This document shows, in pieces, positions 1 through 6,000 of a stretch of DNA of 64,000 nt. The DNA is from Candidatus Bathyarchaeia archaeon. GTDB lineage: Archaea; Thermoproteota; Bathyarchaeia; 40CM-2-53-6. The stretch lies in contig JBEKVV010000001.1 in NCBI GenBank assembly GCA_049513715.1, positions 672,001 to 736,000 of the forward strand. Reading direction: 5' to 3'. Numbering within the stretch: the first letter of the stretch is position 1; each line of letters opens with the position of its first letter. Made by a program: the position numbers.

Positions 1-3000
1 TTCTTTGATTCTGATTACTCATAATATGGGTATCGTTGCTGAAATGGCGGATAGGATAGCAGTCATGTATGCTGGGCGACTCGCTGAGATAGCCCCCACA
101 ATCAACATCTTCGAAAATGCAAAACATCCCTACACAAAGGCGTTGTTGGAATCTATACCCAACATCAAGGCGGAAGATAGGATTCTCAAAACAATTCCAG
201 GAGCGCCTCCGGACCTGACCGACTTGCCTTCAGGTTGCGCGTTTCACCCAAGATGCCCATATATGTTCGACAGATGCAAAATGGAAGTCCCGGCGCTAGT
301 CCGAACAGGGAATGAGGCTGAAGCATCCTGCTTCTTATTGGAGGGAGTTGCAGCACGTCCTTCATTGAAGTCAAAAGCCTGAGAAAGTATTTCCCCGTTC
401 AAAAGGGACTGATTTCGCAGCTCTTCTCTAGGGCGACGCAGAATGTGAAGGCCGTCGACAACGTTACTTTCGAGATAAAACGTGGAGACATCTTTGCTCT
501 AGTCGGGGAATCCGGCAGCGGAAAGACCACGACCGGGAGAATCACCGCAGCCCTAATCAAACCAACACAAGGAAGCGTGATAATCGACGGCACTGATATT
601 TCCTTGCTTCGGAGGCGTGAACTGAGAGAATTCAGAAAAAGAATGCAGTTCGTCTACCAAGATCCACTCTCATCCCTCAACCCGAAAATGCATATTGGTG
701 ATGCGATTGGAGAGCCACTTCGATATCTGACTGATACCCCTCAATCAGATCGAAGACGCAAAGTCTTTGAACTTCTCGAACGAGTGGGACTTTCACCCCC
801 AGAGACCTTCTACGATAGATATCCGCACCAGCTGAGCGGAGGGCAGAGGCAAAGAGTGGTAATAGCCAGAGCGATCGCCATTGGCCCAGAGTATTTGGTT
901 GCCGACGAACCTGTTGCAATGGTTGACGTTTCGGTTAGAGCTCAAATAATAGAATTGCTGCTCAAAATGCAGAAAGAACTGCACCTCACCATCCTTCTCA
1001 TCACACACGACTTAGCCGTCGCCAAATACATGTGCAACAAGATCTCAGTCATGTACCTTGGCAAGATAATGGAGTCGGGCACTACGAAGGAAATGTTTTC
1101 GAACCCACTCCATCCATACACTCAAGCCCTACTGGAGGCAGTCCCAGTACCTGACCCAAGAGTAACCGCCCCGAAATCCTTACCGATGGGAGAGATACCT
1201 AGCGCACTGAATCCTCCTAAAGGCTGCCCCTTCCACCCACGTTGCTCGCGTGTCTTCGACCGATGCCGAAGTGAAGAGCCCCGAATGCTCAAGGTTTCAG
1301 AAACTCACTACGTTGCATGCCACCTATACGACAAGTAGCTAATTACTGGCCTCAGCTGGCCTACACATTTCCCAGTGCCCTGATTTGCTGAACCCCAGTC
1401 GACTGTAGAACTCGTCGGTTCCGCCGACCGGAACTGCCGTGAATTCATCTGTCGGATTGCCTGCAATTACCGACTTAATGAGAGCTGAACCGACACCCGA
1501 ATTCTTGTTTGAATCAGAAATCTGCAAACATAGTATCGTCATCTGGTTTGGCATCTTCCGGCTGACTGCAGTAAGACCGATAATTCTGCTTCCTTGAAGC
1601 GCAATCCAAACCGTGTGACCCGTCCCGATCACACTAACCTCGACACACTCTCTTGTAATCGGCATGCTAGGGTCTAGCGAGAGATCTTACATGTCTCCCA
1701 GTTTTCCTTGGCGATAAACGACTTGAGTCTCTATTCGCAATCAAGTTCGATTCAGATTTGACCATAAGGTTTATCTTGTTTGCCGTAATCCGCTCGCCGA
1801 ACAAAAGTTTCCAATCCTCAAAATAGGTACGAATGTTTGGATTTGAGAATCGTTGGGTAAGCAAATTCGGGTGCAGCGGCGTGGAAAAGGCGGCTCTCAA
1901 TTCACCGCCCGTTCCTTTAGGCGACTTGCTCCAGTAAGATTTCCTCCTGCCACGCAAGCACTCAAAGGTGTTGTTCGCGAGATAATGCACGATCCGGCCA
2001 GAGGAACACCACTCGCCCTGATTGAATTCACAAACGGAAATGCCTGCTGCTTAGCTGCGCCCGAGGGCCTAGCCCTAAATCAAGGCATAGATTTTGGCGA
2101 AAGAGCATCACCAGATGTCGGTAACGTATTGCCTTTAGGACGGATGCCTGAAGGTACTCTTGTCTGCAGTGTTGAATTGCGCCCAGGTGACGGCGGGCGA
2201 GTAGCAAGGGCTTCGGGAACATACTGCATGGTTGTTTCACATACCCCTCAAGGGACTGAGTTGCGATTGCCATCCGGCAAAGCTGTTTACATGAACGATC
2301 ATTGCAGGGCAATGGTTGGCGTTGTGGCTGCAGCGGGAAGAACTGAGAAACCATTCCTTAAGGCAGGGACAGCTCAGAAATTGATGACCGCACGGGGACG
2401 CGTGTGGCCTACGACGAGTGGTCAAAAGATGATTTCTGCTTCACACCCCCACGGGGGAGGAAGGCACAAGCATTCAGGAAAGCCAACAACTGTATCTAGA
2501 AACGCCCCTCCTGGCAGAAAGGTTGGGATGATCGCGGCTCGACAAACCGGGCGAGCCAAACGCGCTATACGCACATAGGTGATTTGAATGACATTGGTCG
2601 ATCCGCTCGCAAATGCATTGAACACGATTCATAACAACGAACGTCGTCATAAACGGGAATGCATCGTTTGGCCGGCCTCCAAGTTGATGGGGCAGGTTCT
2701 GCGTGTGATGCAGAAGAATGGTTACATCGGCGAGTTCGAGTTCATTGACGACGGCCGCGCTGGGAAATACCGCATTCAATTGCTCGGTCGAGTGAACCGG
2801 TGCGGAGTGATTAAACCAAGGTACGCTATGAGAGTGCCCGATATTGAACATTGGGAGGAAAGATATCTTCCTTCACGCGAAGTCGGCGTCCTAATCGTGA
2901 GCACACCGAAAGGCGTAGTATCCCATTCGGATGCGAGAGTCGCCAAAACAGGTGGACGGCTGCTCGCCTTCGTTTTCTGATGCTTCTTCTGGAAACGCTT

Positions 3001-6000
3001 TAATTGGGCACCTGCATGACGCACTGAATCAGCGACTGAAAGAGAAGTGGATAGTTTGGCGAAAGGACCTCAGTATAACCTCCCATTCCGACGAAGGCGT
3101 GAGGGTAGAACACGATATGGAAAGAGACGGCGCCTTGTAGCGTCTGGGATAGCTCGGTTCGTTGTGCGGCCGTCAAACAAACACCTCATGGCTCAGATAA
3201 TCGAAGCGAAGCCCTATGGCGATCACGTTCTTGCGTCGGCTCATTCATCCGAGCTGAAGGAATTCGGGTGGAAAGCACCTTGCGGTAACCTTCCGGCAGC
3301 GTATCTAACAGGCCTCCTCGCTGCGCGTAGAGCAAAGGAGAGCGGTGTCTCTGAGGCGATACTCGACATTGGCCTACACGCGAGGGGACCCGGCTCTAGA
3401 ATTTTCGCCGCAACAAAGGGAGCCGTAGACGCGGGACTTACGATCCCGCATGATAAGGATGTCCTGCCACCTTTGGACAGGGTGCAGGGTAAGCATGTGA
3501 TGGCCTATTCAAGTAAGTTATCTTCAAACGCAGAATCCTACAAGAAGAATTTCTCGATATACCTGAAACATAAACTCAAGCCAGAAGAACTCTCAACTCA
3601 CGTCAGCGAGGTACAAGCCAAAATCAGCGCTAGCACTCCGAGGCTCAAGAAATGAGCACTAAACCAAAGCGTAAGACCAAGCCGAAGGCCATAAAGAAAG
3701 CGAAGCCGAAAGTAACTAGGCGACCTATTGCTGCCAAGAAACCCGAAAGGAAAACTGTTGAAGCGGCTCCAGCCCCGGAAAGGAAGCCTTCTGCACCGGA
3801 ACGGACCTTTGTCTTAGTCATCCGTTTGCTTGGCCCCATCGCGGTTCCGGCGTATATTGAAACCACCATGAGAAGCCTGAGGCTCAACAGAAGGTTCAGT
3901 GCAATTCTCGTCGAGAAGAATCTCAGCCTCCTTGGAATGCTCAACCAGGCCAAAGACTACCTGACCTGGGGGGAAGCCGAAACGCGTGACATAGCAACCC
4001 TGTTCAGGGAGCGAGGTGAACTTATCGGTGGGGCCGCGGTAACTGAAGGATTCGTGAAAGAGAACTTTGGTCAGCAATCGATCGAGGAGCTGGCGGCAGC
4101 CCTAATCCGAGGCGATATAGATTTGAAAGCACTCTGGAAGAAAGGAGTTAAACATGTTTTTAGAATGCGAGCGCCCTCGGGAGGATTTAATTACAGCGTG
4201 AAACGGCATTTTGCGACCAGAGGAGAGCTGGGAAACAGGGGTCATGGGATTTCGAATCTTCTGGAAAACATGGCCTGAACCTGTCCGCCACCTCTAGAAC
4301 GGAAGAGTAGTCTTAGTCCTGATTGCAATGGCCCGGAGCGCCCGTAGCTCTGTAATCCTAATACCCGTGAAAATGTCTAGGGTCGGCTCACGCGACGATC
4401 TGTGCCTGATACTTCTAAAGGCCATAGAAAACCGAGGCTTGGTCCTAAGGCGAGGCGACGTGGTTGCAGTCGCCAGCAAAGTCGTGTCTCTCTGCGAGGG
4501 CCGGACATTGCCCCTAAGCCAAGTCATCTCCGCGAAGGCGAAACGTCTAGCCCGAAGATGGCACATGGACCCCCGCCTAGCAGAAACAGTCATTCAGGAA
4601 GCGGCAGAAATCATTGGCGGTGTAAGGGGTTTTTTGCTGACAATAAAGAATGGAATCATGACCGCCAATGCAGGCATTGATCTCAAGAATGCTCCACATG
4701 GAACCGCTGTTCTCTGGCCCATCAACCCTGACAAATCTGCTTGCAAGATGCGTATGTGTCTCGAGAAACACTTCAGAACACGGCTAGGGGTGATTGTTGT
4801 TGACAGCAGAGTCACACCAATGCGCTTGGGAACGGTGGGAGTTGCATTAGGCGTATCAGGATTTGTACCTGTACAAGATGAGAGAGGCAAAAGTGACCTC
4901 TTTGGACGCAAAGTAAAGTTCACACAAACGAATGTTGCAGATGACATCGCATCGTCCGCTCATCTCTTGATGGGGGAAACCGGCGAAAAGGTCGGAGCCG
5001 TAGTCGTACACAATTTGAAAGTCCATCTGAGCGATTCATTCGATTCGAAGATGACCCGTCTCCGCAAATCAAGCTGTTTGATCGCTAACAGTCTACGTTA
5101 GGGGTCACACTTGCCAGAACACGTCAGGATTTATCAACCAGCCGTCCCTCAAGAACGAGGAATGACTCTCAACCATTCTCGGCAAAGCGGTAGAGTTTGC
5201 GAGTTCCGTTGGAATCTAGGCTCGCGGTAATCAATTTCGAGGCGCGTAGTTTCTTCAAGTGGTAGTTAACAAGTTGTTGGCTCAGTCCCAAATCTTTCGA
5301 GAGTTGGGCCTCCCATATGCCGGGGTGTTCGATTATCCAAAGGATAATGCGGGTTGAGACTGTGTCCATGGAACCGTCTGCCGTCTCCTTGACGTAGAAC
5401 CGACGCGCGAAGCCGTCCCTAAATGACGCGATCGCGCCTCTCCTTTCCATGCGAATTACAGCGAGTGTGCCAATTCTATTGCGGTTGGCCAAGCGCTTGA
5501 TCTCGCGAAGCTTCAACCCTGGTTTCTGCGAAAGCAGGTGGATGATTTCTTGCTGCGCTGTGCTAGGTTTCTCTTCAGCAACCCATGGGATTCTCGCGCA
5601 AGATGAGAATAACTTGTAGCGACTAGCTTCGCTTGAAAATGTCCCGACAAACGCAAAGCAGGCTATCAAAGCAACCGCGACCAGCCATTCTAATCCAGTT
5701 TGATGGTTTGGAGTGACGATTTTCACGAAACCGGTAGGTGAAATTGCATAGAGGTCTCCGTCAGTAGTTACCGTGACTGCGAGTATGGGGCCCCTAACTA
5801 CCTCGTTCCCGGTCTGAACGACATTTCCGGCTCGGTTCATCTGGAGGTAAGTAACGTTCGTTACAGGTGTTAGCTTTTGCGAAGAAGGTAAACCCGATGT
5901 ACCCAACTGATACCAGACAACGTACAGATTGTCTTGAGAATCATTAGAAACAGCAAGATACGCTGCCTGCGCGCTAGGGTAATTCAATTCTTTCAAGTAA

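Follow-up and report, generated by a model that had tools for sequence, protein, structure and literature searches.

How did four genes of the S10-spc ribosomal protein cluster, which is among the most conserved prokaryotic gene orders, come to stand in an operon of their own? We addressed this question in a window of 64,000 nucleotides (C1:672,001 onward) from Candidatus Bathyarchaeia archaeon, a member of the order-level lineage 40CM-2-53-6. The SNAP model was put forward to account for changes in such gene orders.

A profile search and whole-genome tblastn identified uL2, uS8, uL18, and uL30 as full-length family members, each present in a single copy (Table 1). The genome-wide survey's note had described the four as a separate operon in ancestral order, and the ORFs and profiles of the window bore this out. 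The uL2/uS8 spacer was 9 nt and the uS8/uL18 spacer 66-75 nt, whereas uL18 and uL30 overlapped by 4 nt. The N-terminal extension of uL30 was present in all 21 of the type A rows compared (type A being the arrangement of the window). Reading by eye located a BRE/TATA-like motif upstream of uL2 in 11 of 11 upstream regions of genus g1, and the element in the uS8-uL18 spacer, read in the same way, was found in 11 of 12 g1 spacers and 0 of 9 g5 spacers; it is read as a putative internal promoter gained later within genus g1. Both motifs were labeled BRE/TATA by the archaeal consensus, and both are presumed, predicted promoters. The F420-0:gamma-glutamyl ligase gene adjoined the operon downstream in g1 only. 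The operon simply supplies the cell with these four proteins, of which it is the sole source.

Table 1. Features of the window (positions within the window) and of the main S10-spc region (positions on contig C1)
Feature	Position	Strand	Remarks
GNAT acetyltransferase-like gene	1339..1665	-	divergent upstream flank; match below curated cut-off
Putative BRE/TATA-like promoter element	1761..1777	+	~80 nt upstream of uL2; motif by eye
uL2 (rpl2)	1853..2578	+	241 aa, TTG start; PF03947, E 7.8e-38
uS8 (rps8)	2588..2980	+	130 aa; PF00410, E 5.7e-25
Second putative BRE/TATA-like element	2991..3006	+	uS8-uL18 spacer; by-eye reading
uL18 (rpl18)	3047..3655	+	PF17144, E 3e-32; also PF00861; likely start TTG at 3056, favored by comparison with relatives
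uL30 (rpl30)	3652..4278	+	PF00327, E 4e-08; N-terminal extension of ~50 aa, Lys/Pro/Ala-rich
F420-0:gamma-glutamyl ligase family gene	4328..5101	+	PF01996; downstream flank, outside the split
Main cluster	C1:394,298-404,233		SPOUT-L4-L23-S19-[insert]-L22-S3-L29-rnp1-S17-L14-L24-S4e-L5-S14-L6-L32e-L19e-S5
uL15-secY-adk-DUF106-cmk-L14e-truB	C1:410.9-416.3 kb		

The main cluster of the same genome lacked uL2 between L23 and S19, uS8 between S14 and L6, uL18 between L19e and S5 (which lie 1 nt apart), and uL30 after S5. The whole-genome tblastn matched each of these genes in the window only; as had been claimed, they are missing from the main cluster, and the window operon is its exact complement. 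The claim that uL3 and uL15-secY also lie elsewhere survived in part. On the strand of the main cluster, uL15-secY stands 6.7 kb past uS5, which places it in that cluster with an insertion in between; S5 and L15 touch in G053. A solitary uL3 was found in genus g1 only.

We surveyed the uS8 neighborhoods of the 76 genomes with a uS8 match among the 97 of the order. The results revealed 38 genomes with the ancestral order and 38 with a complementary split, the latter comprising type A (L2-S8; 26 genomes of the two genera g1 and g5), type B (9), type C (1), and type D (2). Outside the order, 43 genomes of the same class showed none of the four splits. The note had reported different complementary splits in other families, each keeping the ancestral order, and this was confirmed: in all four types the complements were exact, ancestral order and strand were kept in both pieces, and the junctions were tight. 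Each locus holds different essential genes, and the two together make one full set. In G072 and G077, for example, L3-L4-L23-L24-S4e-S8-L18 exactly complements L2-S19-L22-S3-L29-rnp1-S17-L14-L5-S14-L6-L32e-L19e-S5-L30-L15-secY, as the note had read them. When blocks are counted, chance would keep the order alone in 1/24 to 1/120 of cases per type, and order plus strand in 1/192 to 1/1920. In the six genomes where a single contig carries both pieces, these lay 93-283 kb apart, on opposite strands in two of the six. The idea that uL3 departed from the main cluster in every type was ruled out, as genus g5 retains it there. Two points add to the earlier description: type C, a fourth kind of split, and the eS19 gene that leads the second operon of types B, C, and D.

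The second operon of types B, C, and D begins with eS19, a gene drawn from another cluster, whose usual context is given in the available text of Tirumalai et al. 2023 (PMC10833476) as nep1-RNP-RBP-S19e-COG2118-L39e-L31e-eIF6. The eS19 gene stood 7-30 nt upstream of uL3 in 10 of 10 B/C/D loci extending that far; in ancestral-order and type A genomes it occupied its usual cluster, and not the position before uL3, at all 20 eS19 loci. It was cleanly missing from the usual cluster in G072 and G077. In the eS19 tree, B, C, and D grouped together with a support of 89. The B/C/D forms share this head and differ in their interior genes. The four second operons together use only 9 of the 24 cluster genes, a union that never arose in 400,000 draws simulating four random events (p 0.0004 for three events); two genes are common to all four types (p 0.001 under random loss). 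The note had proposed that the whole cluster was duplicated and that reciprocal loss came afterward. A copy with reciprocal loss agrees with the complements, order, strand, and tight junctions, but separate random events in each family do not fit the nine-gene union, the shared eS19-uL3 junction, and the differing signal of lineage D described below. The question of one duplication or several, which the note had left standing, is thus partly answered: the eS19-uL3 junction points to one origin for the second operons of B, C, and D, with type A outside this answer.

The proteins that moved are suggestive in kind. S8, S17, and L18 are primary rRNA binders. The available text of the sources describes L3, L4, L22, and L24 (PMC2672003) and L2 (PMC1919495) likewise, L2 and L23 are so named in a reference title within PMC3707915, and the yeast uL2 homolog is described in the latter as joining stably late. 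By this list, 7 of the 8 universal moved proteins are primary binders (Fisher p 0.001-0.05; block-aware p 0.006-0.27, depending on the null and the list).

In the RNA polymerase tree, D grouped with the other members of family f10 (96) and A with g2/g4 (98). A single clade of all split lineages was rejected by this tree (p 0.0002), in agreement with the stay-at-home genes; a B+C+D clade was only borderline rejected (p 0.059). The six second-operon genes of D summed to +12.5 lnL for a placement beside C, against -207.7 for the other 19 genes (gene permutation p 0.019); four of the six leaned to C and two against. Under LG+C20, the S8+L18+L30 of D rejected the species position (p 0.032), whereas its L4, L23, L2, and L24 rejected a place beside C (p 0.002). 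Hence the main genes of D sit with their own family, and its second-operon genes seem to lean toward B/C. Lateral transfer and old paralogy predict much the same tree for D. Nevertheless, its uL3 (-13.1; p 0.015 under C20) and S4e (-6.4) favored the species tree, and the six genes jointly did not reject the species position (p 0.245), so that gene conversion or noise must be added to either account. Single-gene trees were noisy, with g1 and g5 not recovered as sisters in 4 of 9, and the second operons of types C and D are represented by one and two genomes, respectively.

As in the survey's note, no genome with both copies was present among the order genomes searched, and the ten-gene form eS19-L3-L4-L23-L2-L24-S4e-S8-L18-L30 appeared neither in genomes nor among 80 metagenome eS19 loci, of which 77 were ancestral, two type B, and one D-like and cut. 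A second L2-S8 in G052 was not taken for a true duplicate: it had the same flanks and 90% nucleotide identity and was closest to a sister species, which marks a foreign contig. A second L3-L4-L23 in G097 was also foreign, with 41-46% identity to every order member compared. S3 of G104 and L14 of G078 each occurred on two contigs, at contig ends. The discordant genes of D may point indirectly to a two-copy stage.

We consider it slightly more probable than the alternatives combined that one chimeric second operon, as a long-lived duplicate or passed sideways, was followed by reciprocal loss, and that the window operon descends from it. Early in the order, a copy of the S10-spc cluster would have been made at another locus and placed behind a copy of eS19, and four internal deletions would have left the ten-gene form. 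This redundant operon would have reached several lineages, either as a duplicate persisting through short basal branches or by lateral transfer, which we hold to be about equally probable; under persistence, the lineages keeping the ancestral order would have lost the second operon entirely. For one gene after another, each lineage would then have lost either of the two copies; with essential genes left at each, both loci would have become locked. The L2-S8-L18-L30 of the window would be the most reduced outcome, its own predicted promoters having been gained later. In an unlikely variant, the ten-gene chimeric operon (eS19 plus nine S10-spc genes, many of them early rRNA binders) moved as a unit between families and displaced different native subsets, with the window operon among the results; under this variant, a single order would contain universal marker genes that are xenologs.

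It is possible, and we give this a lower but real weight, that only B, C, and D share a second operon and that type A arose by a separate duplication in the ancestor of g1 and g5, followed by reciprocal loss; the gene overlap would then be convergent, perhaps because early rRNA binders gain from or tolerate a separate transcript. Type A has no eS19 in its operon, and its flanks differ from those of B/C/D. Its four operon genes place like its native genes with no transfer signal, its uL2 favors the species position (-20.6 under LG; -7.1, p 0.16 under C20), and the S8+L18+L30 likelihood falls when A joins the D+C group (+2.2 versus +9.7). The primary-binder enrichment also agrees with such an origin. 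However, all four type A genes would fall within the B/C/D set by chance with p 0.012 unless the binder bias, which is not robust, is called upon; the S8+L18+L30 of A opposes an A+D grouping less strongly than other gene triples do (p 0.009-0.026), and its uL3 falls with those of C and B at 95/93 (only +2.1 under C20). A fast constrained search in which the four A genes rejected A+g2/g4 (p 0.0099) was put down to poor searching, as a fixed-topology test gave p 0.55.

Assembly of the new operon from genes moved singly or in small blocks, with no duplicate stage, appears improbable. Such moves do occur in the order (the solitary uL3 in g1, and solitary uL23 and uL30 in G088), and no duplicate stage was seen in the genomes searched; nevertheless, they would have to reproduce ancestral order and strand in all four types, and the common head of B/C/D with different interior genes argues against them. 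Four separate whole-cluster duplications, each resolved by random reciprocal loss as in plain SNAP or tandem-duplication-random-loss, are very improbable: the split lineages are scattered over the tree and each type alone resembles such an event, but the nine-gene union, the two genes in all four types, the shared eS19-uL3 junction, and the discordance of D speak against this. An assembly or binning artifact is scarcely credible. All of the genomes are metagenome bins, G000 carries 8.8% contamination, and two bins hold foreign r-protein contigs; however, 26 genomes from two genera carry the same operon, and in six the two pieces share a contig.

The interleaved split of a fixed ribosomal cluster is best read as a SNAP-like process. 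A literature search, mainly of journals outside subscription and of articles without their supplements, found no description of this arrangement or of such a process in this order, and "Bathy" is absent from the main text of Tirumalai et al. 2023 (PMC10833476). In SNAP (Brandis and Hughes 2020, PMC7055797), the two copies of a duplicated segment each lose different essential genes and the new order is locked, as we propose here. SNAP, which is modeled for bacteria, has the duplication kept by selection in a new niche and takes loss to be random between copies; in this order, the same nine genes are sorted in several lineages, the second operon is a chimera headed by eS19, and the second-operon genes of one lineage look foreign or older. 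The four types, taken as independent events, do not show loss that is random between copies, and are compatible with random sorting within one shared nine-gene duplicate. Cluster deletions in Gammaproteobacteria and Bacilli are explained, in the published text available, by chromosomal duplicates or transfer from close kin, which is similar to our reading, and a partial duplicate (the alpha operon) is described in Psychromonas ingrahamii; the cases described there are insertions, separations, and gene deletions, and not interleaved complementary operons. The Asgard S10-spc clusters in the available text of Tirumalai et al. 2023 have the same core order, but their splits are contiguous segments (e.g., uL22..uS14 / uS8-uL6 / L32e..uL15), whereas the pieces here interleave.

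Our findings also resemble the gene orders of animal mitochondria. Tandem duplication-random loss there partitions one series into two while preserving order, and an order-preserving two-way partition is likewise seen here; in contrast, the pieces in this order are far apart, some on opposite strands, and loss is nonrandom across lineages. The two pieces do not stand in tandem, although an initial tandem might since have been obscured by rearrangement.

The order thus offers a natural, repeated, interleaved case with ancestral-order sisters, in which real genomes permit tests of duplication-loss, persistence, and transfer. Phylogenomic studies use uL2, uL3, uL4, uL18, uL24, and uS8 as co-located markers present in single copy; here they are not co-located nor, in lineage D, clearly of a single history. 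Archaeal cells can make ribosomes from two interleaved operons with new, predicted promoters.

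The window spans C1:672,001-736,000 of genome G000, and tblastn against that whole genome matched the uL2, uS8, uL18 and uL30 genes nowhere but in the window. The main cluster of this genome lies at C1:394-404 kb on the contig of the window and reads SPOUT-L4-L23-S19-[insert]-L22-S3-L29-rnp1-S17-L14-L24-S4e-L5-S14-L6-L32e-L19e-S5; the gaps left by the absent genes are closed tightly, the L19e-S5 spacing being 1 nt. The genes L15-secY-adk-DUF106-cmk-L14e-truB follow 6.7 kb beyond on the same strand, and uL3 is solitary on contig C9 (C9:11,783-12,784; loci L083 and L154).

Genes of the separate ribosomal protein operon in the window
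Gene	Window position	Strand	Description
uL2	1853-2578	+	full-length ribosomal protein gene
uS8	2588-2980	+	full-length ribosomal protein gene
uL18	3047(3056)-3655	+	full-length ribosomal protein gene
uL30	3652-4278	+	full-length ribosomal protein gene

A uS8 match was obtained in 97 of the 105 genomes of the order, and its neighbourhood was read in 76 of these 97, some loci being truncated by contig ends. The ancestral order was found in 38 of the 76 genomes, and four types of second operon were identified: type A, that of the window (L2-S8-L18-L30; 26 genomes of genera g1 and g5), type B (L3-L4-L23-L24-S4e-S8-L18; nine genomes of families f6 and f7), type C (L3-L4-L2-L24-S4e-S8-L18; one genome, G088) and type D (L3-S4e-S8-L18-L30; two genomes of g22 and g23). 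Wherever the main cluster was retrieved, it was the complement of the second operon, and the two lay 93-283 kb apart where one contig carried both. No gene was present at both loci among the genomes searched; two apparent second copies (L117 = G052:C23; L212 = G097:C71) proved to be contaminating foreign contigs in those bins. Outside the order, 45 genomes of the same class were sampled and 43 retrieved; uS8 adjoined S14 and/or L6 in all 43, and a second-operon-like arrangement of uS8 occurred in none of them. Plain cuts at S19/L22, without interleaving, were observed in g2-g4 and f2 (L084/L161, L086/L163, L090/L164), with an additional plain cut after L30 in g2-g4. In many families of the order the S19-L22 interval holds a small HTH-type gene on the opposite strand, and in several an Hsp20-like gene lies downstream of uL30 (loci for these two observations: L001:8,859-9,624 and L106:15,096-15,551).

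Counted in blocks, the odds of a type retaining the ancestral order are 1/24 to 1/120, and those of retaining both order and strand are 1/192 to 1/1920. The gene sets of the four types combined draw on just 9 of 24 genes, with uS8 and uL18 common to all. A union of nine or fewer genes was produced by 0 of 400,000 draws of four random subsets of the same sizes, and the inclusion of all four type A genes in the B/C/D set has a p of 0.012. Independent random events do not account for this pattern. A functional bias lacking robustness, in which early rRNA binders were favoured among the moved genes, is possible.

The gene for eS19 (PF01090), which is not an S10-spc gene, lies 7-30 nt upstream of uL3 in all 10 of the B, C and D loci reaching that far. 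In 20 of 20 ancestral-order and type A loci, it stands in its usual cluster (a PDCD5-like gene, L39e, L31e and eIF6, or parts of these), G000 (C3:71,881-72,306) being among them, and this setting matches the description in PMC10833476. A search of 65 genomes recovered eS19 in 64, as one full copy, and in G072 and G077 the usual cluster is intact except for the missing eS19. The new eS19-uL3 junction common to B, C and D argues for a single origin of their second operon. Their union is eS19-L3-L4-L23-L2-L24-S4e-S8-L18-L30, a form that four internal deletions of the S10-spc cluster would yield. Among 80 metagenome eS19 loci, 77 were ancestral, two type B and one D-like, and the full eS19-L3-...-L30 form was absent. 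In type A genomes, an inverted block beginning with L11 and NusG-like genes, so named from sequence reading, follows eS19-L31e-eIF6 (L184, L185, L186, L203), a further case of a rearranged ribosomal cluster.

In the backbone tree of 15 never-moved genes (45 rows, 2,436 columns), B and C fell near the base, D joined ancestral-order genera of its own family (100) and A joined g2-g4 (96.7). Subsets of these genes rejected as clades both the grouping of all four types (p 0.002, 0.023) and that of B, C and D (p 0.008, 0.038). The RNA polymerase tree (30 genomes, 1,370 columns), independent of the S10-spc cluster, agreed with the backbone (D+f10 96, family f1 98), rejecting A+B+C+D at p 0.0002, with p 0.059 for B+C+D. 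The lineages carrying the eS19-headed operon thus do not stand together, as others that lack it fall between them.

The two loci of type D differ in their placement. With its main-locus genes, D joins f10 (bootstrap share 0.92), and a position beside C is rejected by 53-63 lnL, as it also is for L4, L23, L2 and L24, which are outside the backbone set. The six second-operon genes fit best next to C or to B+C; their f10 position is 15.6 lnL worse but not rejected (p 0.245). Taken singly, eS19 (+13.8), S8 (+8.1), L30 (+7.8) and L18 (+2.1) favour the position beside C, and L3 (-13.1) and S4e (-6.4) oppose it. Comparing these six with the 19 other D genes gave a permutation p of 0.019, a contrast inflated by the 15 of 19 that built the backbone. 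Under LG+C20, the species position is rejected by S8+L18+L30 of D (p 0.032), and the position beside C by L4, L23, L2 and L24 together (p 0.002) as well as by L3 (p 0.015). B, C and D group at 89 in the eS19 tree. An old second copy and a laterally transferred copy fit the discordance equally, in either case with gene conversion at some of the genes.

For type A, the operon lacks eS19, its flanks differ from those of B, C and D, its four genes place as its native genes do, and its uL2 prefers the species position. Other observations hint at descent from the B/C/D operon: all four genes belong to the nine-gene set; an A+D grouping is less strongly opposed by S8+L18+L30 than by other triples (p 0.009-0.026) and is not rejected by them under LG+C20 (p 0.14-0.29); and in single-gene trees, which are noisy, type A uL3 clusters with those of C and B (95/93), weakly so under C20. 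We give descent of the type A operon from the shared second operon slightly better than an even chance.

We propose that a second partial copy of the S10-spc cluster would have arisen, that reciprocal deletion gene by gene would have rendered both loci essential, and that later breaks and single-gene moves would have followed. The later moves are those of uL3 in g1 and of uL23 and uL30 in C, and in D a later break severed SPOUT-L4-L23-L2 from S19. This process works like the SNAP model (PMC7055797), in which each copy of a segmental duplication loses different essential genes and the new order is locked, and it resembles the routes by duplication or by transfer set out in PMC8046335; however, the random-loss premise of both fails here if the types are independent events. 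No match for the arrangement was found in the literature searched, most subscription journals and all supplements being outside its scope. The process is known; the variant is new and unusually clear, being interleaved, chimeric and resolved four ways within one order.

By eye, a BRE/TATA-like motif lies approximately 80 nt upstream of uL2 in 11 of 11 g1 genomes (window 1761-1777), and a second occupies the uS8-uL18 spacer (window 2991-3006) in 11 of 12 g1 and 0 of 9 g5 genomes; by the archaeal consensus, both are putative promoter elements. Many ancestral L2-S19 spacers have a TATA-like element upstream of S19, which g1 retains despite the loss of uL2 there (also by eye). In genus g1 uL3 is solitary (also L155-L160, L179, L180), and 8 of the 9 rows show a conserved TATA-like motif of its own before it; g5 retains uL3 in the main cluster. 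Oligopeptide-type ABC transporter genes flank the operon region on both sides (window 1-1338 and 8383-12859), and clusters of this kind border type A operons of both genera, g1 and g5. Type A uL30 carries a Lys/Pro/Ala-rich N-terminal extension (window 3652-3810; L013, L014, L116), which is approximately 50 aa long in most genomes and approximately 175 aa in G044, G049 and G052; the low-complexity C-terminal tail of L32e in G000 resembles it. Most g1 uL2 leaders contain a short motif approximately 25 nt past the TATA-like element (window 1795-1802), possibly a start-site or leader element.
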